Shown here: positions 5,603 through 38,425 of the stretch, in pieces
How the letters are laid out: every line of letters begins with the position of its first letter
How positions within the stretch are numbered: position 1 is the stretch's first letter
Source of the DNA: Savitreella phatthalungensis
Taxonomy: Eukaryota
NCBI GenBank assembly: GCA_051599415.1
Contig: AP039703.1
Location: 1 to 64,000, forward strand
Direction of reading: 5' to 3'
Length of the DNA: 64,000 nt
Made by a program: the position numbers and the translations under genes
Notes under the pieces: model-generated
The model's database searches: none
What the model was told of the DNA's origin: nothing
Seen by the model: the letters and a program-made list of their open reading frames with translations, nothing else

Positions 5603-6018
5603 GTCCCTAACTGTTGACTTACAGTTAGGGATGCCATGCAGTGTTTCATCCCTAACTTCATGGCTATAATCTGGCGCTGCTGAAAACAGTTTGGGATTTT
5701 TGAACGGAATATATATAGATGTGCACCGCTTAATTGATCCGTCTTATTCCTATCCTATCTCCTATCTTGTTCAATCTATGCCTCTATGTGTACACAACAT
5801 GACATCATTCTCCCATTTTGACCGCTTTGATTGCCTATATCTTCTGATCCAGATGTCAGATGATCACAAAACTAGTCTCATCATGAAGCCATTGATCAAC
5901 TCTATAAAAAACATTTTTCACATGTACAACGGTCTTTCACCATTTCAACCTATCTCAGATTGGTGCCTTTGGGGATTGCATACTGCAGTTGGCCATGTGC
6001 TCACAATGCAAGGCCCTT

Positions 6019-6149
6019 GGTCTGCAGCACAGTGGTTTGGCCTCCACTGAGCTACTGAGTCACAAGCTTTGTGCATGGAGGGTAAATGAAGGTCTGGCAG
6101 AATTTGAACTTTGGGTTTGAGGTCTCGAGTTCAAATCCTGCTTGGAGCA
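6019..6149 (+). pseudogene. tRNA-derived segment, copy 2
   Basis: GGTCTGCAGCACAGTGG ... GAGGTCTCGAGTTCAAATCCTGCTTGGAGCA. Confidence 0.5.
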
Positions 6150-6314
6150 ACAATTAACTGCCAATAAGCTCTAGGCAGTCAGGGAGCAAGAGCGCTCTCA
6201 GGGGCCTTCCCTCCATGCACAAGGTCAGAACATTTCTCTGAGTGTTCTGATACTGGGGATTTTGCCGAATTTTTCACATTCAGGCACAGACAGATGCAGA
6301 GAAGGCAGTCATAT

Positions 6315-6728
6315 GCATAGAATGCAGTGGAATGCAGCGGAATGCAGGGGATGCAGAGAATGCAGAGAATGCAGTTTGGTTTTTGCAATTTGGTTTTTAC
6401 AGTTTGGTTTTACAGTTTGGTTTCGCAGTTTGGTTTTACAGTTTGGTTTCTGCAGTTTGGTTTTTGCAGTGTGGTTCTTGCAGTCCTGGATGCAGTTTGG
6501 TTTTACAGTTTGGTTTCGCAGTTTGGTTTTGCAGTTTGGTTTTACAGTTTGGTTTCGCAGTTTGGTTCTTGCAGTTTGGTTTTACAGTTTGGTTTTTGCA
6601 GTTTGGTTCTTGCAGTCCTGGATGCAGTTTGGTTTTACAGTTTGGTTTTGCAGTTTGGTTCTTGCAGTTTGGTTTTTACAGTTTGGTTTTTACAGTTTGG
6701 TTTTACAGTTTGGTTTTACAGTTTGGTT
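6315..6728. repeat. 9-bp and 13-bp satellites, copy 2
   Basis: Direct reading. Copy number differs from copy 1. Confidence 0.95.
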
Positions 6729-8234
6729 CGTCCCTAACTGTTGGCTTACAGTTAGGGATGCCATGCAGTGTTTCGACCCTAACTTTATGGCCATAATCTG
6801 GCTCCGCTGAAAACAAATTTGGGATGTTTGGACAGAATAGATATAGGCCATGTGACACAACCTCATCTTTATCAGTAGCGTCCTTGTTGCAAGCTCCATT
6901 ATAATTTTGACAAAGATTGGAATTGGGAACAGTAATGTCTTTGCATTGCCATTTCCAAATTTATCACCAATGCTGCGCTAAATGCATCCTGAATCCAAAC
7001 AAGTGACCGCAGTTCAACCTCATCCCCTGTTTGTTGACCCTGTGCTTAATTTGGCCTCACTTGAAGACAGTCAAGTTCAACATCAAATTACTGTACTGGT
7101 TCACTACTTAGAACAGTTTTTGTGCCAGTGCATCCTTGAGCTTTTGCAAAAACGTTAGGACAGCTGTACTCTTCAGCATTAAAGAGCAATCTATCCTTGA
7201 GATTATCTGTGCATTCTTAAGGACAGTCCTGAGAAAGCGGCAGCTTTTGTTATCTTTTGTCACTCTTTGCATAGCTTTACTCTCTCACTACTCAGGATGC
7301 CCCTCCCTCAGCCCTGCACTTTGATTGATGAGGGTGACAGTCATTTGATAGCGGCTGACAGGGTTCAAGGACACATTTATGTGGAACATATTCTTGCACT
7401 AAGCATATCCCTGAGATTGCTGCATCCTTTCTTGTTTTTCAATGTTTGACAGCCTTCAACACAGCCTCAATATTCACACTCTTTGATGACTTCGACTGAA
7501 GGGTGCGGCCAGTTTGCATTTTTTTGCCTCCCCTTTTTAGGAGGAAAGCCTCCTCAGAATTATTGAATTTTTAAATTTCTCTTGCCCGACTCAGCCATCA
7601 ACCTGACCGGAGCTCTTCCTTTCACCTGTCATGATTGGGTCAAACACAAGCGCCAACGATGCTTACATCTCGTGATCTGGAGGAGGTTCCAGACTGGAGG
7701 CTCAGAGTTCATCCAGCCTGGATTCAGAAGAATCGCCTTCAGATATGGCCCTGAATTTGTCTGTTATGGCTTCAATCTGCAACTGGTCGCCATTCAATCC
7801 AGATCTAGATGAATGACAAAGCTCCAGTGCGTCCATGATCATGGCGAAAGTTGTTACGATCGCTCCAGGTGATGTCAAAGCTCTGCTGACATGGGATCAA
7901 ACTTGATAGCGACAATAATTTCACCGGGCGGAGCCTCTGGCGGCGATTCACGCGCGCCACGGTCGGGCGCGTTCGAATTGCCGGCCCCACAAGAATCGCC
8001 AAGAACAGTCCGCGCAACAACTTACCGGATTGGGTACTGATTCGCTCTTTCCATTCCTCGCAATTCGCTGGCAGGGAATCCTCGATGCTTTTTCAAGTTA
8101 CGTGGAATACCTTCGCAGTGCGAGCTTGCGCTGTAGAAGGTAAATTACGCACAGGCAAGCGCTCAGGACCAGGACTGCCGTCTCTACGCGAAGCCCAATT
8201 CTCTCGCGTGAGACGTCGCTGAACACGCACCACC

Positions 8235-10259: not shown

Positions 10260-11063
10260 CTGTATACGACTGTAGAGCGAAAGTGTAGCGGCCGACTCGG
10301 CCTACACCAATCCCACATCGAAAATCAGATGCAGATTTTCGACGCGCTCATACAGCCGTGTCGCGTATTCAATCTTCCGTGTTGACGACTGATCGTATCG
10401 GCCACGCTATATTTATGGTCTGAAATAACAGCGGCAAGCCGGACATGCCAGTCAGACGATGTAGCGCTCCGCCTGGAACGTCGAAGATAGCCGCATACGA
10501 TTGTTATGTCAATGCCAAAGTGAAGTCAACGGGGCTAGCATCCGAACAGACAAGATTCACGACGACGTTAATACGAATGACCAAGACTGTCAGGTCTTGC
10601 TGCTAGATGCTGCCATGATTGGCTGAACGTCCTTGAGGGGCTCTTACGCGCTTGCTATTCTTATTTGCTAAGTTCAGCAGGATCCAGGTGCGATCTCAAG
10701 CTAATCGCACAACGATGAGGCAAAGCCGAACGACTCATTCGGAAACTGGGGCTTCCTCAAAGAATCGAACAGCCCGGGCCTATGAGGTCTTGAGACGAGC
10801 AGAGTACACACACGCTGTACACATCGGTGGCTTGTCGATTGCTCTCCTTTCCAGGAGGATAACTAAGCAATTTTGACTGAACATGGGCAATTTCAGCCGA
10901 TAATGTTTCGAGCTCGGCTAGACTTGCAGTTTGAAGGTCGTACGGCTGACAAGTGCTTCTACGTCATAATCGGGGGAAACGATTTTTAAGTCCGAGCCCT
11001 GCGCGAAACGGTGAATGCCGCGCATAAGGGGTGCTCAAGTAGACCTATGACCGCGTAAGACAC

Positions 11064-14000
11064 ATGCCGAATTACAGTACAAAGACGACAACTCATCCGG
11101 GCTCGTCGAAAGAGGAGATTTCGCGGGAGAATGATAGTGGATCGCGCCACCGGTTTGGCAGTCGCAACGAGGAAGGCCGCCGGGCAGGATTTGCGGGATG
11201 GAACGATTACGACAGAGAGCACGACATCGATGAGGTCTACGAGGGACGTGAGGACTGGAAAGAGCTGGAGGACAGACGAGACAAGGCCAACGATCCTCTG
11301 ACGATACGCGATGTGATGGCCGAGCAGAAAGATTTCAACTTCGTGCACCCTTCGCTCCATGTCGCTTCTCGATTCGTGCTCAATGTGACAGAAGATGAAA
11401 TCAAAAACGATCGACGATGGCCGATCGTCCAGAAGAAAAAGGCTGAGGAGGAAGAGGAACGGCAAAGGACAAAAGGCGAGGAAAAAGACGGTCAGTCGGA
11501 AGGTGCGGCGTCTGACTCTGGCATTTCAACATCAAGCGAACCTCAAGATCACAATGACAAAAGCAAGAAGGATTCAGAAGACCAAGAATTTCTGCGGAAC
11601 CGCAAACGCGAGGGCGGCGATGAGCGCGCCCATCGGGCGCAGCCTAGTGCAGACAATGGAGAGCAAAAAGACGGCTTGTCGTCGACTGAACGCCATCTTT
11701 TACACCACCTGCAACAAGAATCGGAGCATATGGTCTCGCTTCAATCGAACGACGGTCAAGGCGTCTCACCCTTCTACGAACAGCCGTACCGCGAGATTTG
11801 CGTCGATGAAGCTGACCAAAATTCGCCAGATAACTGGATTCCTCGTAGCAAAGACCTCATGCGGATGACTGGTCAACACCCTCTCAACGGGGAGCCAGTG
11901 ATGGAAGAACTTTTTGGAGCCGGCTTAGTAACGCCGACGAGCCTGCACTATGTGCGTAATCATGGAGCCGTGCCAAGGCTGGACTTCGAAACCCACCAGG
12001 TCCATTTCTCATTGCACGATGGCTTAGAGCCCCTCGCGAAGGCGCGTCTCGGGGAGTGGACACAAGATGGACAGCACCTACGGATGCAAGACATCGTCTC
12101 ACTTCCAACTATCAATATTCCTGTGACGCTGGCCTGTGATGGAAATCGACGTAAGGAAATGAACATGATCAGGCGCTCAAAGGGCTTCGACTGGGGGCCC
12201 GGAGCTGTTTCGAACGTCTACTGGAAAGGTCCACTACTGAAAGACGTCCTCGAAGCGGCCGGCATAATCCCAAAACAAAGATCGAAAGCCGATCGTTTGT
12301 TTATTCACTTCGAAGGCGCTGACGAGCTTCAAGAGGGTCGCTACGCGACGAGTATTCCACTTGAGCACGCGCTGGATCCATGTAATGATGTCCTGCTCGC
12401 GCACGAGATGAATGATCGACCACTGTCTCCGGATCATGGGTACCCGATTCGTGTCATCATTCCAGGATTCGTCGGTGGACGATGCGTCAAGTGGCTACAG
12501 AAGATCTGGATCTCGACAAAACCGAATGATTCGCACTTCCACGTCTGGGACAATCGTGTGCTTCCGGAGTTCGTGACGGAGAAGGATGGACCGTTTGCAG
12601 AGGCAATGTTTCGTCATCCAGACACAGCGTGCATGGAGCAGAACTTGAATTCTATCGTAGTGCACCCGAGGCAGGATGAAGAGCTTGTTGTTGAGGGCGA
12701 TGCGTTCGCTCCCGCAAAGACTTACCGAATCGAAGGCTACGCGTATGACGGCGGTGGCCACATGGTGCAGAAAGTAGAGGTCTCGCTCGATGGTGGCAAG
12801 TCGTGGCTGTATGCTTTCCGGAGGTTCCCTGAGAGGGCGCTCAGACATGGCTGGAAATTCTGGACGTGGTGCCACTGGTATTGTGATGTCCAGATCGCAT
12901 CGATGCTTGGAGCATCAGAGATCTGCGTGCGCGCCTGGAATGTCTTCAAAAACACACAACCGGACGACATTACGCCGAATCTGATGGGCATGATGAACAA
13001 TGCCATTTACAGGGTTCGGCCGCGGATCGAGCAGGCACATGGAAAGACGATATTGACCTTCGATCATCCTGTTTCGTCGAACAGCGACCGCGGCTGGATG
13101 AAGCCGAGCGTGACAGATCGAATCAAGGCTGTAGAACAGAAGGCTTCCTCTCCAAGCAAGAGCTTTACTCGCGAAGAGATTGAGAAGCACAATTCTGACG
13201 AGGACTGCTGGATCGTCGTCAACGACAAGGTGTACGATGCCACAACCGTGCTCGAGTGGCATCCTGGCGGCGCACACGCCATTCTTGGCGTTGCCGGCAA
13301 GTGTGACTACTCGACGTCAGAACAGTACAACTCGATCCACGATGATTATGCAAACCATAAGCTACAGGAAGTTTGTATTGGCTCGGTGACGGACAAGGCT
13401 CGACAGGCAATGAAAGCCCAGCAAGAGCGCCGAGCAAAAGAGGCCTCGCAGGAGGACGATCCCACCCTCGGCCTGCGGAAACATCGCTGGACTCCTGTGA
13501 CGTTGACGGACAGGGTAGAGTTATCCGACAGCAGCGTCAAGTACACTTTCAGCTTCCCTGAAAAAAGGCAGAGACTCGGCCTGCCGCCTGGCAAGCATGT
13601 CTTGCTCGGCTTTCATCTCAGGGATAAGATGGTCTTCCGAAGCTACACGCCTACTCGACCGATCATGCCCGAGGAAGAGGATGGTACCTTTGATCTCGTG
13701 ATCAAGACCTACTTTCCAAGCGAGCGCGATGCTGGCGGCACGCTCAGCAACGTCCTCGACTGCCTGAAGATCGGGGAAAAGTGCGACGTTCGCGGCCCGA
13801 CTGGCGAGATCGCCTATAAGGGCGATGGTGTCTTTGATGTTGAGGGAACGGAGCGCCGGTTCGATACCGTCAACCTGGTAGCAGGCGGCACGGGCGTCAC
13901 CCCACACTACCAGCTCGTCTGTCGTATTCTCAAGTCACGAAATGACGAGACGAAGATCAACATGCTGTATGCGAATCGATCAGAGGATGGCATCCTCTTG

Positions 14001-14246
14001 CGAGAGGAACTCGAGGAGCTTGCCGAGAAGCACGAGCAATTCACCCTAACGCATGTGCTTTCAAAACCCGGGAAGAAATGGCAAGGAGAGACAGGTCATG
14101 CAGGGCCAGAACAATTCAACAAGTACTTTGCGAAGGACGACAGCTCAGCCTGCTTCCTATGTGGGCCGCCGCCTTTGGTCAAGTCAGCACACGAATCTCT
14201 GGTAAAGATGGGGTTCGAAGACGAGCGCTCCCTTTTTGCCTTTTAG
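11064..14246 (+). CDS. Nitrate reductase-like molybdoflavohemoprotein (Moco, dimerisation, cytochrome b5, FAD/NAD(P)H domains)
   Basis: LHYVRNHGAVP, TLACDGNRRKE, PDHGYPIRVIIPG, cytochrome b5 WHPGG...SIHD, RSYTP, AGGTGVTP, FLCGPP. Confidence 0.93.
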   Translation: MPNYSTKTTTHPGSSKEEISRENDSGSRHRFGSRNEEGRRAGFAGWNDYDREHDIDEVYEGREDWKELEDRRDKANDPLTIRDVMAEQKDFNFVHPSLHVASRFVLNVTEDEIKNDRRWPIVQKKKAEEEEERQRTKGEEKDGQSEGAASDSGISTSSEPQDHNDKSKKDSEDQEFLRNRKREGGDERAHRAQPSADNGEQKDGLSSTERHLLHHLQQESEHMVSLQSNDGQGVSPFYEQPYREICVDEADQNSPDNWIPRSKDLMRMTGQHPLNGEPVMEELFGAGLVTPTSLHYVRNHGAVPRLDFETHQVHFSLHDGLEPLAKARLGEWTQDGQHLRMQDIVSLPTINIPVTLACDGNRRKEMNMIRRSKGFDWGPGAVSNVYWKGPLLKDVLEAAGIIPKQRSKADRLFIHFEGADELQEGRYATSIPLEHALDPCNDVLLAHEMNDRPLSPDHGYPIRVIIPGFVGGRCVKWLQKIWISTKPNDSHFHVWDNRVLPEFVTEKDGPFAEAMFRHPDTACMEQNLNSIVVHPRQDEELVVEGDAFAPAKTYRIEGYAYDGGGHMVQKVEVSLDGGKSWLYAFRRFPERALRHGWKFWTWCHWYCDVQIASMLGASEICVRAWNVFKNTQPDDITPNLMGMMNNAIYRVRPRIEQAHGKTILTFDHPVSSNSDRGWMKPSVTDRIKAVEQKASSPSKSFTREEIEKHNSDEDCWIVVNDKVYDATTVLEWHPGGAHAILGVAGKCDYSTSEQYNSIHDDYANHKLQEVCIGSVTDKARQAMKAQQERRAKEASQEDDPTLGLRKHRWTPVTLTDRVELSDSSVKYTFSFPEKRQRLGLPPGKHVLLGFHLRDKMVFRSYTPTRPIMPEEEDGTFDLVIKTYFPSERDAGGTLSNVLDCLKIGEKCDVRGPTGEIAYKGDGVFDVEGTERRFDTVNLVAGGTGVTPHYQLVCRILKSRNDETKINMLYANRSEDGILLREELEELAEKHEQFTLTHVLSKPGKKWQGETGHAGPEQFNKYFAKDDSSACFLCGPPPLVKSAHESLVKMGFEDERSLFAF

Positions 14247-21708: not shown

Positions 21709-22305
21709 ATGACTGTTCTTGCCAGCTACACAACCAACCTGGGCAACGTGGCATGGTGTCTAGCGACTACAGCCTCAGCCTACGCGCTGTTTGCGAATCT
21801 AGGCGCGGCTGAGTATGGCATCATGCCAGTGGTGTCGCAGCGCAAGGTCGAGGCCCAAGCGCAGAAGCGTAACGACGGAGACGAGGCACTGGCCAAGATT
21901 AGCGGATCTCTCACGCACGCACAACGTTCGCAGCTCTTCACGTTCTTCTATGATCGTGCCAAGAACCGCATTGTGCCTTCCATTGTCATCGGCACCTTGA
22001 GCTTCGGCACAGTCGCGTATTTGCTTCCTGCACGCGACGGCTTCCTCCAGGCTCGCAACGCTGCGATTCTTGGGGCTATCTCGTTCGCTGCTGCAATTCC
22101 TGTCACCTTGCGACTACTTATGCCTACGAACAAAGTGCTGATTTCTGTCATGAAGGGCGACACGGTGAAGGAGTCTTACGTGCCAAAACTGCTGGAGCGC
22201 TGGAATCGTGCGCATTTGGTGCGAATCGTACTCTTTGCCATCAGCTTTGGCAGTGCCCTCATCCTGCGCGAGTCTCTCGGAGAGCTTCGTCTAGCACGGC
22301 CATAA
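21709..22305 (+). CDS. DUF1772/anthrone-oxygenase-like membrane protein
   Basis: Four hydrophobic helices, IPVTLRLLMPTNKVL, LLERWNRAHLVR. Confidence 0.75.
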   Translation: MTVLASYTTNLGNVAWCLATTASAYALFANLGAAEYGIMPVVSQRKVEAQAQKRNDGDEALAKISGSLTHAQRSQLFTFFYDRAKNRIVPSIVIGTLSFGTVAYLLPARDGFLQARNAAILGAISFAAAIPVTLRLLMPTNKVLISVMKGDTVKESYVPKLLERWNRAHLVRIVLFAISFGSALILRESLGELRLARP

Positions 22306-23944
22306 GCGCTATACATTTCTCTTCCTGTAGTTGCGGCGTGACGACCTGCACACCAACATTGAGACCAACCATGTCATCAGCGTTGTAAATTGCCGGGGAT
22401 TTCATGAACCCTTGATACATAGCCGCGTGAAATACCCCTTGCCAGCCTTTGTATGTGTCCTTGCCCTCGAGCGCATCTTTGACGGGATCTACCTGCGTGA
22501 CAGGTACAACGCCGGCTGGATAGTCAAGCAAATTGTACAGGTAGGTGGTGGTGGCCACAGGTAAGATTTCTCGCGTTTCGCCATGCTTGACGGCCGGCAG
22601 CGGATAGACTGGGCAAATGATCGCATCGAATCCTCCAGCTCGCCAGATGTTGTCGAGCCAGTGCTGCTTGAGGTCACTGCGTGTCCAATTCCATTTGGAC
22701 AACTCGTCCCAGGACTGTTTGCCACAGATCCTCAGAAGATCAGTAAACTGTCTGTCCTTGAAGTATCCGTCAAGAGCGAAGCCAAGCAATTGCCTGACAA
22801 AACGTGGCAACGGCGGAAACACCATCTCCATGGCCACATTACGCTCCCAGGGATCCTTCCCGAGCAGCTTCTTCATTCCTACATTGCCGTCAGCGGACGT
22901 CAGCGCAACGAAGCAGTGCACAGCCTCCGAGACGCGTGGCGGTACGATCTCCTCGCAGATGTGGCCCTGCGCACGTAGAGCAGCGACAGCCTCCTCCACG
23001 GCACGTCTACACGCCGGAGAGACCTTACTGAACGTATCATCGACATAATACGCGAACCTCTGCCTGCCCTTAGCTTCGTACTTCCGATGTGGAATCTGCA
23101 AGGTGCTTGAATCCACTAGCCATGGCTCGTCCTCGAGCACCACCTGCCACAAAAGCTCAATGTCTTCCACAAATCTACCCATCGGCCCAGAGACCGGCTT
23201 GATGCCGAGATTCTCTGCAGATCGGTCAAAGTCGAACATGCCTTTTCGTGGCCAGCGGTCTTCGCTCGGCTTCAATGAATAGCCCCCTGAGAAGTGCGTT
23301 GGATAGCGTAGCGAACCAGCAATGTCTGTACCAATTCCCAAGGCGGACGATCCAGAGCCTAAGCTGGCACCTTCGCCTCCGGAGGAACCTCCGCAAGTAT
23401 AATCGGGGTTCGCCGGATTGCCCGTCTTGCCAAAAATCGGATTCGAAGACTCGTTCGTCATCAGTGTCTGCGGCACATTGGTCTTGAACATGATGATGGC
23501 ACCGTTGCGACGGAGACTGCTGACCAGCACCGCATCGTTCGATGCTGGATCATCACAGTACCGGGAAATACCGACACTCGAGTCGAGCCCGCGCACATCG
23601 AACTGATCTTTGATACTGCAGGGAACGCCTTGCAGTTTGCCGCGTTTGTCCGGATTCGCATCCTGCTGGCGCGCTTTGTCGAGAGCCTCGACGATCATGC
23701 ATTCCGTGATAAAGTTCAACCGCGCGTGTTGCTCTAGCGCCTTCCTTGCAAAGGCGGCCACTGTCTCGATTGCTTTCCATTCGCCAGCTCGACATTTGTC
23801 AGCAATGGTCTTCGCGCTTGCGGCAAGGATCTCGCCATCATAGGCAGAGGAGGGAATGGCCGCTAGGGCTTCGGAAGCTTTTGCAAGCGCTAGCGTCCTC
23901 TCGCTCGTCTTCTTGGCTAGAGCCTGTTCGAATGTCAAAGTCAT
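22259..23944 (-). CDS. Amidase-signature family enzyme (acetamidase/FAAH-like)
   Basis: GVPCSIKD, KTNVPQT, GGSSGGEG, GTDIAGSLRYP. ATG at 23944. Confidence 0.93.
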   Translation of the reverse strand: MTLTFEQALAKKTSERTLALAKASEALAAIPSSAYDGEILAASAKTIADKCRAGEWKAIETVAAFARKALEQHARLNFITECMIVEALDKARQQDANPDKRGKLQGVPCSIKDQFDVRGLDSSVGISRYCDDPASNDAVLVSSLRRNGAIIMFKTNVPQTLMTNESSNPIFGKTGNPANPDYTCGGSSGGEGASLGSGSSALGIGTDIAGSLRYPTHFSGGYSLKPSEDRWPRKGMFDFDRSAENLGIKPVSGPMGRFVEDIELLWQVVLEDEPWLVDSSTLQIPHRKYEAKGRQRFAYYVDDTFSKVSPACRRAVEEAVAALRAQGHICEEIVPPRVSEAVHCFVALTSADGNVGMKKLLGKDPWERNVAMEMVFPPLPRFVRQLLGFALDGYFKDRQFTDLLRICGKQSWDELSKWNWTRSDLKQHWLDNIWRAGGFDAIICPVYPLPAVKHGETREILPVATTTYLYNLLDYPAGVVPVTQVDPVKDALEGKDTYKGWQGVFHAAMYQGFMKSPAIYNADDMVGLNVGVQVVTPQLQEEKCIALMAVLDEALRETRAG

Positions 23945-23998
23945 GGTCCGGCGTGTCGGCAGAAAAAAAAGGATATGCTGCCCCGCTTTATGACGCAC

Positions 23999-24628
23999 AT
24001 GCTACCGACTCCAGATACGTCCCATGTGACCGGCAAAGATGTCTACGAGCCAGCCGAGGATTCATATGCACTACTAGACGCCCTCGAGGCTGATCGCGAT
24101 TGGCTCGTAGGACGCTTTACGACTCCTTTGCTGATCGATCTGGGCTGCGGCAGTGGAATAGCCGGTGCCTTTCTGGGCTCGCACTTCTTTCCTGGCGGAT
24201 TAGCATTTGCTATCGACATCAATGTACTGGCATGCGAGGTCAGTGCTTTAACGCTTCGCAAGGCAAGGCTCACGGTAGCAACGGATGTCCTTCAGGCGGA
24301 TCTACTGTCTACAGTCAGGGACAAATCCGTAGATATCCTGCTTTTTAATCCACCGTATGTACCGACGGAAGTAGCAGAAATCTACCGCGATGGAGATAGA
24401 AATCCCCTGCGTGCGGCTTGGGCGGGCGGTCAGGACGGCCTATGGCACGTGTGGCAAGTAGTGGAGGAACTCAACCGAATACTGACCGCGAATGGGGTCG
24501 CCTATCTCGTGCTGGTCGCGCGTAACCGGCCGATCGAGTTCATGGCCCAGTGCGGCATGTCTGCGGAGATCGTTCTCAAGCGAAAGGCTGGGCGCGAGCA
24601 CCTCCATATTCTTCGGCTGATGCGTTAA
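23999..24628 (+). CDS. MTQ2: eRF1 glutamine methyltransferase (Mtq2/N6AMT1)
   Basis: MLPTP, VYEPAEDSYALLDAL, DLGCGSG, FNPPYVPT, AWAGG. Confidence 0.92.
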   Translation: MLPTPDTSHVTGKDVYEPAEDSYALLDALEADRDWLVGRFTTPLLIDLGCGSGIAGAFLGSHFFPGGLAFAIDINVLACEVSALTLRKARLTVATDVLQADLLSTVRDKSVDILLFNPPYVPTEVAEIYRDGDRNPLRAAWAGGQDGLWHVWQVVEELNRILTANGVAYLVLVARNRPIEFMAQCGMSAEIVLKRKAGREHLHILRLMR

Positions 24629-24869: not shown

Positions 24870-26789
24870 AAGTCGAATTACCGAAACCTGGACACGTGTT
24901 ATCATGGACACAAAAAAATACTATGTTTCTGTCGCTTCTTCGCCGAGGCCTTCCTCGTAGACTGCGCAGTGCTCGATGGGAGCACCTCTGCTAGGGCTGT
25001 ACGCACGCCAGCCTCGCCCTTAGCCTGTAGCCAAGCCTCTGGATCAATCTTAGCCTTCTTAGCCTCGTCTAGCACGAACTGCCAGCGTGCATCTGAGATC
25101 TCACTGCCTAGCAGGCCTAATAGCCAGTCCATCGAGGCAAACATCGCCTGTGGATGTACCCTGTGCACAGTGCGAGTGAGCCTGCCCTGGAGGGTTTCTA
25201 TGGTGGCCAGGGCATCCTCCAATTGAGCACTGGCGCTCTCAAAGCGCGTGTGCAGCTCCTCATAGTGCGAGGCGAATTGTGTGCGATCTAGCAGTGCGCT
25301 GTCCAGGATGTCTAGCTGCGTTTTGCCTGCCTTCAGCACCAGTGATTGCGTTCTTTTTGGAGGTAAAGGAGTGCTGCCAAGTAGATTAGTAGGCAGTGGT
25401 TGTAGAGGCGATCATAGAGCAGCGCTGCTGTCCTCAACGCCGCCCTGTACCTCGCATCGGTGCTTCGCTAGCCCTCAGCAAATAGCATCCATGTGATAGG
25501 GGTTTATACCTGCTGCCTTGAAGCCAGAAAGGATGTTTTTGCGCGTCATTGCTGCATTGAAGGCTGCACAGAAGGCCTTGATAAACTGCACGCGCGTGAT
25601 TGACTTTCCACCTTGCCTGTAGGATAAGGCCTTCACCTGTTCGCTGTATTTCCTCTTGAGAGGCGAGAATATAGCTAGGTCAAGAGGCTGTGTGATGTGT
25701 GAAGAGTGCGCAGGCAGGTAGACCAGTTTAAGATCGTTTTTCGCACATAGGTATAGAAACCTGTGTGTAATGTGAGGTCCTGCGCCATCTATCACCAGGA
25801 TGCGCGTTCTCTGTGGCTCGCTAGCAGTAGCAGGCAGGAAGATGTCCAGCAGCCAGCTGCACATGATCTCTGAAGTGGCGAAGCCGTTCGAAGAGTGAAA
25901 TGCGCGTACCACGCTGCCTGGAGGTCCTAGGTATGCTGCCTCATCTGGCGGCCTTGTTCCTTCCTCCTTAGCCTTGGCCCATGCCTTGATCTTTGCCTCT
26001 GTGCGTTTGAAGATGAGGATTGGCGGTAGATGCGCGCCTGCTGCAGAGATACAGGCTAGGCAGGTGATTGTTTCACGATTTCCATTGTCTGCTGCGTAGT
26101 TCGCAGTTCCTTGGACCTTTCCCACAGGAACCACTACCTGTGTGGTCTGTGAGCGTCCCACCATGAGGCCAGATTCGTCAGCGTTCCATACGTCTTCAGG
26201 CTGCACACTGTGCGCGGTAAGGTAGCTGCCTAGGCGCTGCCAATACGCGTCCACAGCAGCTGGATTCACCGCGTATAGGCGCGCGTGGTCAATGCGCCTT
26301 GCCAGAGTAGTCTCAATGGTAGGGTGACGCCTTTTGAAGGAGTCAAACCACCTTCCACCGAGCCAGTCTGTGTTTCCGCGAGATCTGTAAAAAAGATCTG
26401 CTAGGTCCTGCACCTCTACAGGCATCATAGGATAACCTGCAGCTGCTCTGCTGTTGACTATGTCAAGGACAGCCTGCTCCTGTGTCTTGGTGAGTCTCTG
26501 GCGTTCTTCTGCTGCTGTGTGGTAGCCCCTATTGCCATTGGAAAGGCGAAGGTGCAAAGAACTGGAGGATACGTCAAATTCTGCTGCTGCTTCGCGAATA
26601 GAGATAGCTCCTGCCTCCTTTCCCTCCAGGTAGTACTCCACAGCCGCCTGCATGCGTAGCTCCTTCTCATGGTCCTTCATAGCAGGTATTGGCTGAATAG
26701 CAGTGTCTTGAAGGTCAAGGTGCTCTGTCAAGACGCGTCTAAATTACGTGTCCATGATAACACGTGTCCAGGTTTCGGTAATTCGACTT
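24870..26789. mobile_element. pogo/Fot1-type (Tc1/mariner superfamily) DNA transposon, 1920 bp
   Basis: Perfect 42-bp TIRs (24870-24911 and 26748-26789: AAGTCGAATTACCGAAACCTGGACACGTGTTATCATGGACAC). TA at 24868-69 and 26790-91. Internal transposase. Confidence 0.96.
24902..26680 (-). pseudogene. pogo/Fot1 transposase (HTH-psq, CENP-B HTH, DDE) interrupted by two in-frame TGA codons
   Basis: SIREAAAEFDV, WFDSFKRRHP, WNADESG, LVIDGAGPH, HSSHITQPLDLAIFSPLK. TGA at 25475-77 and 25412-14 lie in the same frame as the 24902-25339 ORF. Confidence 0.88.
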
Positions 26790-34213: not shown

Positions 34214-35014
34214 ATCGAGCCGACTCGATGTTGGTTGGCATTAGAGTACTTTGTATGGTGTGCGTGTAAATATATGTAATCGTGGAAAGGGCAATGTCCG
34301 TCGGCAATTTGGCGTCCTCACGTGCTCATTCCCTGATGGCCTCAACATGCATGTGCAAGCATGATCTCAGATTGATCGTGTCATTATTCCACGAACCGAA
34401 GCCAAACTTCGCCGGCCAGATTCGACAGACAGACGGAGCGAGACCTGCACTGCGCAACTGACACACAGGCACAAAACAGCGACCACTGTCGTATAGATTC
34501 GTCAATCCTTCCAGCATGTTTTATACATGTACATGATGAAAATTAGTCGTAGCAAATGATCGCCTAGCTCGTCCATCCTCTCCTCCGGGATCGCAGGGGA
34601 CAAAGCATGACGACAGCGACCAGGCTACACACCTTGTTACTTCGAAGAGGTCGCGATTGTACGCTCTGATCCTACATGTTCGTATTCTGCTGGAAGGAAT
34701 TTGAGCAGGCGCGCTTGAGCCGCAAAGGATCCTCCGCGCAGGCTCTCGTCATCTCAGCGACCAAAATGGTGCGGGCCACGCTGACCATTGCATTGCGTTC
34801 CTCGTGTATGGTCGTTGGCAGAGCAATGACTGGGCATGTCCGTTGCGTGGGCCAGCTTGCAGCATTTGATGCCGAGCTCGACCGGACTAATTTTGTGACC
34901 TTCCCCTACTCTTCAATTCCTTGATCGTGTTGCCCACAAAGTTATCTAGCTAGATAAACACCATCCGATGCATAGTTTCGAGGGAGAATTAATCACGTCA
35001 TTGCTATATCTACG

Positions 35015-35614
35015 ATGCGAACCATGTTGCGCTACTCGAGACGTTGCTTCTCGAGCTCACTGAGACGCCTGCGTCAGTCCATATGGTCGTACGAGTCCGT
35101 CGCATCTCATGCAGCTTCACCGGCTCAAAAGACGCGCCTCGTGGACGTCCGCGAAACGGATGAGTACGCGGCAGGCGCCATTCCGAGTGCTGTCAATGTG
35201 CCCTTGAGCCGGCTAGAACAGCTACTAGCGATGTCGCCAGAGGACTACGAACGTAGCACTGGCCATGTGAAACCAAAGCACGACGAAACTGTCGTCTTCT
35301 ATTGCCGGTCAGGCGTGCGCTCTTCCAAGGCGAGTGAGATTGCGGATCGCCTCGGTTTCAAGGACATCGGAAACTATAAGGGCTCCTACCTGGATTGGAC
35401 GGCAAGAGCAGCCTCGCCCGATCCTCATGCTGAAGTGGCATCTGCCCAGGCTTCGACAGCTGGCGACCAGATTTCCTTGAAGGAAATGAATGAGCGCGAA
35501 GCGACACGGCAAGGTGAGGCGCAAGCTCATACATTGTCGCACGACGAAGCGTCAGAAAGTGTCAAGAATGGTTCAGAGCTTGCCGACCAAGGACAGCAAT
35601 CAAAATTCAGCTAG
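35015..35614 (+). CDS. Single-domain rhodanese, likely mitochondrial (Rdl2-like)
   Basis: Presequence-like N-terminus, LVDVRE, GAIPSAVNVP, FYCRSGVRS, YKGSYLDW. Confidence 0.9.
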   Translation: MRTMLRYSRRCFSSSLRRLRQSIWSYESVASHAASPAQKTRLVDVRETDEYAAGAIPSAVNVPLSRLEQLLAMSPEDYERSTGHVKPKHDETVVFYCRSGVRSSKASEIADRLGFKDIGNYKGSYLDWTARAASPDPHAEVASAQASTAGDQISLKEMNEREATRQGEAQAHTLSHDEASESVKNGSELADQGQQSKFS

Positions 35615-35992
35615 CCACTGTTCGTAATTGAATGCATCGCCATGTGTGCCGAAGAGCCTGCTAAATTGTTCCGGAGACAGCTTATTGTCGCCAGTGCAGA
35701 GTGCCTTGCGCAGCTCTGCAGAAGCGATCGAGCCGGAAGCGCGCTCATCGAACGTTCTGAAAAGCAGGCGCATGTCATTTGGTATTCTCCGTTGCTGTGC
35801 GGTCATTGTCGCCAGAAATCCAGGTAGAGACCTTACAGGAAGCGTTTTGAGCATGTCCCTAATGGTTGCGTCGTTCTGCTCTAGTCCTAAAGATCGTGAC
35901 ATATTTCTAACATCCTCGAAAGACAACTTCCCGTCTTCATCTGCATCCAGGAGGCTGAAGGCTTCCTTAAGCCGCTCACTCGCGTCTGCCAT
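35600..35992 (-). CDS. EF-hand protein, myosin regulatory light chain-like
   Basis: LKEAFSLLDADEDGKLSFEDVRNMSRSLG, FRTFDERASGSIASAELRKAL, FNYEQW. ATG at 35992. Confidence 0.8.
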   Translation of the reverse strand: MADASERLKEAFSLLDADEDGKLSFEDVRNMSRSLGLEQNDATIRDMLKTLPVRSLPGFLATMTAQQRRIPNDMRLLFRTFDERASGSIASAELRKALCTGDNKLSPEQFSRLFGTHGDAFNYEQWLAEF

Positions 35993-36069
35993 TAATATGG
36001 CTACAGCGCCTTTGTTTACCTTTTTCTCATTTGGCTTCTCTGTGGGATCAATTGGAAATGAATAAAGGC

Positions 36070-36852
36070 TCACGCCAGCTGTTCCGCATGCTTAAACCCT
36101 CCGTCCTGGAGCTTTCGCATGATCTCTGGCAGCCGTTCGGGATCGACGACTCCCGAGGCCACGCCGCTGCCACCTTGTATGATGCGATTTCCCACAATCG
36201 GCACGCAGCGCACGGTCCTTGTGTCTCCAGGTTCAAAGCGCACTGCAGTGCCGGCTGCAATGTCCAGGCGGAGGCCGTAGCTGCGCGCACGGTCGAATTG
36301 AAGCGCCGGATTCGTTTCAATCAAGTGATAGTGAGAGCCGACTTGAATGGGTCTGTCACCCGTGTTTGTGATGCGCAACTCTGTGCGTTGGCGACCGGCG
36401 TTCAACAAAATCTTGCCAGGCTTGACAAGCACTGCCCCAGGCTGATTTTCCGGCCGTAAACTCGCCTCGCTATGTGCAGGAAAGATCTCCGGGTCTGGTA
36501 CAGGCAGAAAAGAGCCTGCCAAAGCTTTCTCAAGGTTGCCGTGCTCTGACGAGATTGGCTGATGGACCGTTACGAGATAGGTGCCATCTGGAAACGTTCC
36601 TTCAACCATGACTTCATGCATAGCAGCAATGACCGGGGCCTGTACTTGTCGTCTGCCGAGCAGCTGCTTGCCCTCTGACATGAGCTGCGAGACCGTATGG
36701 TGCCCATCTCTGATGAGCTCATGTAACTGATAAGCAATCAGCCCGCGGGCTTCTGCTTCATTGAGTTGAACACCGCGAGCCAGTCGGCGCTGCGCCAGCT
36801 GACCGACTTGAACGATCAGTAGTTTGTCAATCTCGCGTGGAGAGAGGTTCAT
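36070..36852 (-). CDS. Urease gamma+beta domains only (no catalytic alpha domain)
   Basis: [11 protein letters not shown]...[23 protein letters not shown] (gamma); [30 protein letters not shown] (beta). Stop after 260 aa. Confidence 0.93.
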
Positions 36853-37382
36853 TGCCGTTGTTAGCCGCGAACGACCTCAGTCCAGTACAGAGCGTGGTCG
36901 TTTGGAAAGATAAGATAGCTCGAGTTTGACATATCACGCACGTGAAATTTGATCAATGTCCCTTCGAGCACAATCTCATCCGTAGCTAATCATACGAAGG
37001 CTACTGCGCGATACCTCGAGTGAGAAGGCCTGGACCACCATGTCTCGTACCTTGTAAATCAGAGGAGCGTCCTCAGTAATCTTGTGCACCTGATAAATGC
37101 CTGAAGTGATGAAGCATATGTTGCCTTGCTGGGAGATGCCCGTCCATTGTGAAACCCGAGCGATGATGTAGCGGACGTCTCGCTGACCCGCTTGGTTCAG
37201 CATGCGCTCCACAGAGCAGTTCCATGCGTTGTCATCTCAAAACTCGAGGACGTAGCAGTCTGGGTAATGCGAGGCGTGCGTGATGATGCAGCTTGATGTC
37301 TACTATATGAGCACGAGGTGCTTCCCAACGTCGAACATCAGTATCGATCAAAGTCTGCCCAGAGACCGCGCTGCGCGGCACG

Positions 37383-38425
37383 ATGCTACTGACTGCGATG
37401 GATCTCTTGATAAGTTTATTGCTCTGTGCTTCAGTCGACGCCCAGCGCATTGCTAGCACATCTGCCGCTCAAGCGACGGCGAATGGCAACTGTCCACGAT
37501 ATATGCTGTTGTCCGCGCGAGGCACTACTGTACGAATCTGGAACCGCCTTGAGAGGCCTGTTACTGATCCAATCTACTTTGACAGGAGACACAGCGAGAC
37601 CCAAATGGCTCACGTGCTTTGAAGCGTGCTGTCATGGGCGGTGTGCCCGGAGGCGTCGTTCACGAGGCTGTATATCCAGCAACGTTTGCCACCATCGGTA
37701 AATCAACAAGAGGATCCTACGGCTTCCAGCTAACATGCCATCAGGACAAGGACCGAACATAGCCGCGCGGGACATGATACAGCAGATCAATGTCATGCGC
37801 GCTCGTTGTCCGAATACTGTTTTCGCCGCTCATGGATAGTGGGTCGTTCTCTAGGTCTAGGTCGAATGCATGGACTGACTCTCTCAGCTCGCAGGGCGCA
37901 ATGGCTGTCGTCACAATGCTCAACAGCCGCGACATGCCGCGAGACATAAATCTGGCGGGTGTAACACTATTCGGGAACCCTTACTGGTCGCCGCAGAGCT
38001 CGCAAGGTATCAATGCTGGCACAGCAACTCGAGGACGAGGCACATTTGCTGGCAGGTTGAATGTACCTGACCAATACCGCGCAGTGACAAAAGACTTTTG
38101 CAATGGTACGCGAGACGACACAAGTATGGAAGATATGCGTGACTGACCAGTCTCAGCAAATGACCTTTTTTGCACTGGAGGAACGAGCCTCGCTGTGCAT
38201 CTCGCATATCCTCGCAGTCCTCAAGGTCGCCAGGCTGAGCAATTCTTGCAATCCCGACTACAGGCTGTGATTCAAAATCCCGGAGCTGGACGAGCAACAG
38301 CTGGGACTGCAAGTGCAAGTGTCGGTACTACAGGCGCTCGTCGCAATCGAGGAAACGCACGCACCCGTGCACGACAACAGGGCAGTAGTGCTAGCACCCC
38401 AGCTCAAGCTACCCCAGCCGCTTGA
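37383..38425 (+). CDS. Secreted cutinase (CE5), join(37383..37529,37586..37697,37745..37838,37888..38105,38157..38425)
   Basis: Splicing four 47-56 nt GT-AG introns with CTAAC/CTGAC-type branch sites gives a signal peptide, ARGTTE, CPNT, GYSQG, LFGNP, FCNANDLFC and HLAY (Ser-Asp-His triad). Confidence 0.88.

Follow-up and report, generated by a model that had tools for sequence, protein, structure and literature searches.

The analysed stretch of DNA, hereafter the window, is 64,000 nucleotides long and carries a stand-alone gene for the gamma and beta domains of urease. Its chemistry is ordinary and its architecture is unusual: it is a conserved gamma-beta gene of fungal descent, which occurs lineage-wide. 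We assign a probability of about 0.6 to the reading that an old gene fission gave rise to a two-chain fungal urease, in which the product of the 260-aa ORF would be the gamma-beta chain. The ORF runs from ATG to stop, and both domains are complete according to the ORF list, the DNA and the Pfam matches. Urease_gamma (PF00547) matched with 128.7 bits against a cut-off of 23.9 (E 1.1e-37, profile positions 1-99 of 99), and Urease_beta (PF00699) with 140.8 bits against a cut-off of 25 (E 1.5e-41, profile positions 1-97 of 98). An initial annotation of this DNA had described an intact gamma-beta frame of 260 aa ending in GFKHAEQLA, which proved to be correct. It had also placed an unrelated EF-hand gene about 78 bp downstream; this gene is present (EF-hand_6, E 2.8e-13), but the exact spacing is 77 nt. 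The features of the locus are listed in Table 1.

Table 1. Features of the urease gamma-beta locus, with positions counted from the first letter of the window.
Feature	Position	Strand	Description
Stand-alone urease gamma-beta gene	36070..36852	-	260 codons and TGA stop (36070-36072); ORF, DNA, Pfam
Gamma domain, residues 1-100	36553..36852	-	Canonical start of 11 residues, also in relatives (alignment)
Gamma-beta linker, residues 101-137	36442..36552	-	Contains a 15-residue motif (alignment)
Beta domain, residues 138-234	36151..36441	-	Contains a 17-residue motif; columns invariant in alignment
C-terminal tail, residues 235-260, end GFKHAEQLA	36073..36150	-	Putative fission point in former beta-alpha linker
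77-nt spacer, urease stop codon to ATG of next same-strand gene	35993..36069		X3 contig bridges the spacer
EF-hand protein gene, 130 aa	35600..35992	-	Pfam EF-hand_6, EF-hand_7, EF-hand_1; unrelated to urease; marks the end of the locus
Rhodanese-domain gene, convergent, past the EF-hand gene	35015..35614	+	ORF list, Pfam

With its 260 codons the ORF does not correspond to a single-chain urease, in which a chain of about 840 aa comprises all three domains, gamma, beta and alpha. Full-length ureases of Ascobolus, Coprinopsis and Mucor were searched against the 64-kb window by tblastn. For all three queries only residues 1 to 253-260 matched, at 36852-36079/36088 and with E values from 1e-95 to 3e-100. 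No alpha domain was found in the window by these queries, the best other match having an E value of 0.21, and the initial annotation had reported the same. Because only the gamma-beta part was matched, there is no alpha within 27 kb on either side of the gene. In addition, no splice out of the urease gene was seen in the contigs.

The closest matches of similar length were also stand-alone gamma-beta proteins, among the matches listed. P0002 and P0003 (262 and 268 aa) were 74% identical to the 260-aa protein, followed by a further stand-alone protein of 257 aa (69%), the Protomyces lactucae-debilis entry named 'Urease, beta subunit' (259 aa, 67%), a JGI protein (259 aa, 66%) and the Taphrina deformans PYCC 5710 entry named 'Urease' (260 aa, 65%). 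No gamma-beta protein with a Savitreella name was among the matches listed in this search. For longer proteins, considering the best 120 of 2343 matches, the highest identity was 64%, to Ascobolus immersus P0121 (833 aa); the full-length fungal forms ranged from 58 to 64%, and none of these 120 carried the name of Taphrina, Protomyces or Savitreella. In the alignment all seven complete proteins of the split clade stop 3-16 residues past the motif GF(K/Q)H, whereas the full-length fungal chains continue through about 17 linker residues into alpha. The 260-aa protein ends five residues after GFKH, as do the bacterial fusions P0047 and P0034. Its end thus coincides with the beta/alpha subunit boundary, as expected of the small chain of a two-chain urease. 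Short 'urease' entries from Pezizomycotina served as control. Four of the five inspected read on into alpha (MEREAY.MFGPTTGD); the fifth, from a contig of 3.7 kb, breaks off within the linker. The entries were rejected as further splits and regarded as truncated models of full-length genes.

A gamma-beta tree was built from 55 regions, comprising 26 bacterial-type gamma/beta fusions and 29 fungal rows, the latter consisting of 17 full-length chains and 12 stand-alone or short proteins. These 12 formed one clade (SH-aLRT 96), next to which were Basidiomycota (99) and Pezizomycotina (97), while Mucoromycota and Glomeromycota branched outside. Within the clade the 260-aa protein paired with the two proteins of 74% identity (99), apart from the sub-branches of Protomyces and Taphrina. 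Judging from the tree and the alignment, the split is not peculiar to the source genome and is common to the 12-row clade, including the Taphrina deformans and Protomyces proteins. The position of this clade is, by the same tree, the one that would be expected of vertically inherited Taphrinomycotina genes. Four Taphrina-like gamma-beta proteins from Logan assemblies, P0008, P0009, P0365 and P0367, begin with 15-25 unrelated residues and join the alignment at RRLARG. These unrelated N-termini suggest an intron close to the 5' end in the Taphrina-like sub-branch, which is lacking in the gene of the window.

The alpha half was searched for among proteins shorter than 578 aa; the query was the alpha part of a fungal urease, and 120 matches were listed. 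The matches contained one entry with a Taphrinales name, 'Urease [Savitreella phatthalungensis]' (P0249, 576 aa, on a 715-kb contig), which is alpha only and has no gamma/beta domain. Among these 120 matches an alpha-only protein was therefore present for one of the three named Taphrinales species, and neither Taphrina nor Protomyces was represented by such a protein. The Savitreella protein begins with MKIDREEY, where the alpha domain itself begins, and its residues 1-576 align with residues 1-570 of Sporosarcina pasteurii UreC. The nickel-ligand and flap positions are retained, i.e., HIH, K in GLKLHEDWG, H in IHTD, H in YHSEGAGGGH, CHH, and D in SSDSQAMGR. In the tree with wide bacterial outgroups it grouped with the alpha domains of Pezizomycotina (95) inside the fungal clade (96). 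This placement fits a split that would have yielded two genes of fungal descent; the model is known as an annotated protein only, and a truncated gene model would look the same, since a Met occupies this position in the full-length fungal chains. With the Savitreella protein as query, no close alpha-only relative was picked out of 1.84 billion representatives, in which the 50%-identity clusters merge fungal and bacterial alphas, and the ESM Atlas gave bacterial UreC clusters only. Compared with S. pasteurii UreC, P0249 has an insert of eight residues at about 289-298, after GGGHAPDIM. Its terminal branch (0.43-0.63) is also the longest among the fungal sequences of the alpha trees, and the species is reported as urease-negative.

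In free trees the split forms were nested among the full-length fungal ureases, with supports of 93-96 for gamma-beta and of 95 and 96 for the alpha half. AU tests left the trees with the split forms outside all full-length fungal ureases unrejected, for gamma-beta (p 0.547) as well as for alpha with narrow (p 0.309) and wide outgroups (p 0.101). Because the alternative is not rejected by these tests, the nesting in Dikarya, and with it the choice between fission and a retained two-chain state, rests on the SH-aLRT values and the species tree. A fission in an ascomycete ancestor, as we propose it, rests on the supports of 95-96, on the fact that Taphrina and Protomyces belong to Ascomycota, and on parsimony, and not on a decisive likelihood test. 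The urease of Schizosaccharomyces pombe is a single chain. One urease is given for this species in a table in PMC3073912.

According to the fission reading, the urease gene would have split at the beta-alpha linker in the ancestor of the Taphrina/Protomyces group, which are early-diverging ascomycetes. The break would coincide precisely with the point where bacterial ureases are naturally divided into subunits, and for this reason one would expect the catalytic alpha chain to be encoded by a gene of its own at another place in the genome. The two chains would then assemble non-covalently into a nickel enzyme of the (gamma-beta/alpha)3 type, with the aid of UreD/F/G-type helpers, and hydrolyse urea. 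We infer here the alpha gene in the source genome, the binding of the two chains and the activity of the enzyme.

The constraint on the gene was estimated in three ways. Firstly, we compared the window with run X3, which comes from another study and has another organism label, and whose short contigs are 95-99% alike to the window. Over 36223-36464 the X3 contig had six listed differences; all six were synonymous third positions, and all were located in the beta domain. In the EF-hand gene there were two differences from X3, both synonymous. Secondly, of the 108 columns invariant in 10 full-length fungal ureases, 101 are kept by the 260-aa protein, and 99-105 by the six other complete split proteins. 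Thirdly, the mean identity within the split clade was 70.1%, compared with 70.2% within the full-length chains of Pezizomycotina. By these counts the constraint is strong, the 260-aa gene behaves as a working part of a urease and not as a relic, and the pattern of differences indicates that it is under purifying selection.

Passages in PMC13531029 and PMC7912804 describe Taphrina species as urease-positive, so some active alpha must exist in Taphrina alongside the 260-aa gene. Urease is given as variable for Protomyces in table 3 of PMC7912804. Savitreella is described as urease-negative (PMC8877625) despite its intact alpha, which means that an intact alpha gene is no guarantee of activity. 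A new genus and several new taxa of Taphrinales are also described as urease-negative in a section of PMC13531029, and activity is consequently not universal in the order. Indeed, intact genes and a positive plate test do not always coincide in Taphrinales.

An unlikely explanation is that the gamma-beta protein is free-standing and has a non-catalytic role, the alpha gene being absent or no longer partnered. It agrees with the lack of alpha in the 64 kb and with the phenotypes, since the only Taphrinales species with an alpha-only model among the matches listed is reported as urease-negative, as are several of the new taxa. Non-enzymatic properties of ureases are mentioned in a passage of PMC6077230. 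However, a protein freed of its alpha partner should relax at the interface positions, while the 260-aa protein has kept nearly all of the invariant columns (101/108) and evolves no faster than the catalytic full-length ureases. A function for gamma-beta only is not known from any organism, and this also counts against a non-catalytic role. A more elaborate idea, which we hold to be improbable, is that the two halves of urease have come to be separately encoded and regulated in the Taphrina/Protomyces order and have become uncoupled in some of its members. The gamma-beta chain would then be constrained without urease activity, as in Savitreella-type yeasts, and might have a role of its own, e.g., in a plant-surface lifestyle. 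If true, this would be the first heteromeric urease of a eukaryote and the first stand-alone function of a urease small chain.

We find it quite unlikely that the split clade is an old partial duplicate, i.e., a gamma-beta-only paralogue in genomes that also have a normal full-length urease. A full-length protein from Taphrinales with about 60% identity could fall below the best 120 of 2343 matches, but no such protein of Taphrina, Protomyces or Savitreella was present among these 120. Moreover, the split clade sits where the Taphrinomycotina orthologues are expected, and the only Taphrinales alpha among the 120 matches of the alpha search was the alpha-only model.

It is to a similar degree doubtful that the gene is a decaying relic, which has lost its alpha part, is unexpressed and is heading for loss. 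The urease-negative phenotypes in the order would be compatible with decay, and none of the runs listed is on record as RNA. Against it stand the intact ORF, the exclusively synonymous differences (6/6), the conserved columns (101/108) and the fact that the ORF is intact in at least seven complete relatives. For the fission reading there is, in addition, a hint of transcription. A contig of X2, the second run, from the source sample, skips 47 nt at 37696/7-37743/4 (+) with the pattern GTAAAT...CTAAC...CAG, a canonical small fungal intron, and these 47 nt are retained in run X1. Because of this one contig without a canonical intron, X2 looks RNA-derived, although it is tagged 'DNA?'. The whole urease gene is spanned, unspliced, by an X2 contig of 4171 nt; if X2 is RNA-derived, the 260-aa gene is transcribed and unspliced, which is only a hint. 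After removal of the 47-nt intron at 37696-37744 by script, no ORF of 150 aa or more was obtained.

A bacterial gamma/beta fusion gene acquired by horizontal transfer is a very remote explanation. The bacterial fused gamma-beta proteins of two-chain ureases (about 254 aa) are 56-61% identical to the 260-aa protein among the matches listed, compared with 58-64% for the full-length fungal forms. The closest of them have the same linker motif (16 residues in P0047) and the same end point. The linker had been taken in the initial annotation as evidence of a eukaryotic type. This argument against a bacterial origin was rejected, as the motif is not diagnostic; in the alignment it is also common to plant ureases. 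A branch with an SH-aLRT of 100 and a length of 0.53 separates the 26 bacterial-type fusions from the 29 fungal rows including the 260-aa protein. This branch, together with the position of the split clade, makes transfer from bacteria unlikely, and the initial preference for fission of a eukaryotic urease is supported by it, as well as by the place of the alpha-only model in the fungal clade (95, 96). The genomic setting is different too. Metagenomes were scanned with the Savitreella alpha protein as query, and 80 loci were kept, all of them bacterial-type and none of them a Taphrinales alpha locus. Gamma/beta was found directly upstream of alpha in 67 of the 80, unlike in the 260-aa gene, whose neighbours are ordinary fungal genes; 20 of the 80 had a continuous gamma+beta match. 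Of the remaining loci, 11 had no upstream room, and two had room but no gamma/beta match. Loci L062 (5992-7716) and L066 (match at 6001-7704) contain urease alpha with 6 kb upstream and without a gamma/beta match even at E 50; the ORF upstream of alpha in L062 is encoded on the other strand. They may be bacterial ureases with unlinked small subunits.

An artefact of assembly or annotation, be it a wrong join near 36070 or an overlooked intron with alpha exons behind it, is hardly credible: the truncated Pezizomycotina models (4/5 reading into alpha) show that such errors occur among short 'ureases', but here an X3 contig bridges 35793-36123, X2 is colinear over 34800-37530 without loose ends or joints, and no alpha-like sequence is present within 27 kb on either side. 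The bridging contig (record 6, 331 nt, three other letters) runs across the urease stop codon and the spacer and into the beginning of the EF-hand gene. Run X1, which may be the origin of the window DNA, is identical to the window over 34800-37800, and between 34800 and 37530 the contig alignments showed neither indels nor joints nor loose ends. A check of the junction had been called for initially and, within the limits of contig data, a wrong join near 36070 is excluded.

The 260-aa protein was compared with several groups of known ureases. In single-chain eukaryotic ureases gamma, linker, beta and the GF.H tail follow in the same order; these enzymes run on through about 17 linker residues to a catalytic alpha of 570 residues, whereas the 260-aa protein stops there. 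Residues 1-258 of the latter align to residues 1-254 of the single-chain plant ureases from pigeon pea (4G7E) and jack bean (3LA4), with 267 and 264 bits. An overlap with the part of plant ureases that yields bioactive peptides had been suggested initially; the alignment is restricted to plant residues 1-254, and this suggestion was not upheld, as we take the peptide region to lie mostly beyond the end of the ORF. The second group comprises the two-chain ureases of Planctomycetota/Verrucomicrobiota type (e.g., P0045; alpha P0302 and P0313). They share the chain architecture, the linker motif and the end after GF.H, and in the alpha tree they are the sister group of the fungal ureases (99). Their two genes are adjacent in operons, whereas in the source fungus the partner would be separated by 27 kb or more, or be located on a different contig. 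The urease of Helicobacter pylori (UreA/UreB, 1E9Z) is also two-chain, and its small chain is a gamma-beta fusion of 238 aa; however, it is bacterial, operon-encoded and without the long gamma-beta linker of the eukaryote type. The bit scores do not indicate close kinship to Helicobacter UreA (1E9Y_A), which is far more distant with 177 bits in two stretches, compared with 267 bits in one stretch for plant urease. Two-chain forms had initially been called typical of Helicobacter; they are also abundant elsewhere and account for most of the 120 similar-length matches listed and for 20 of the 80 loci kept from the metagenomes. The Taphrina deformans and Protomyces lactucae-debilis entries have the same domains and the same stop position as the 260-aa protein and belong to other sub-branches of the same clade.

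A passage of PMC6077230 describes plant and fungal ureases as having a single polypeptide as their functional unit, with two-chain forms known only from Helicobacter. No description of a split fungal urease was found in the full-text literature, subscription journals and supplements being outside the scope, and no papers remarking on the split state of the Taphrina deformans and Protomyces entries were found. The proteins of the split clade are already public under plain 'urease' names, while their split state is apparently undescribed in the full-text literature. A conserved stand-alone gamma-beta gene across the order to which the peach leaf curl pathogen belongs would mean that the single-chain rule has an exception in nature. 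By fission at an old subunit boundary, it would reverse the fusion that made the eukaryotic enzyme. It would also offer a ready system for studying what the covalent link between the chains contributes to assembly and nickel loading of eukaryotic urease, whether the small chain is capable of acting by itself, and what makes the urease reaction, a classical taxonomic test, variable within the order. Annotation is affected too: where 'urease' is counted from a single Pfam domain, pipelines will report too many or too few in these genomes.

The other large ORFs of the window are ordinary fungal genes, among them those for nitrate reductase, citrate synthase, an amidase, eIF2B and a Zn2Cys6 factor, and none is related to urease. 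No UreD/F/G accessory genes were found among the 23 window ORFs scanned. Two genes of nitrogen metabolism share the contig with the gene for the urease small chain, i.e., nitrate reductase at 11043-14243 (+), which is full with Mo-co, cytochrome b5, FAD and NAD domains, and the amidase at 22262-24001 (-). An unbroken ORF of 422 aa with HTH_psq and DDE_1 domains, of the pogo/Tc5 transposase type, was found at 25478-26743 (-), with an amidase gene on one side and an eIF2B-family gene on the other. The 3' ends of the rhodanese and EF-hand ORFs overlap by 15 nt (35600-35614), and this overlap together with the 77-nt spacer points to a very compact genome.
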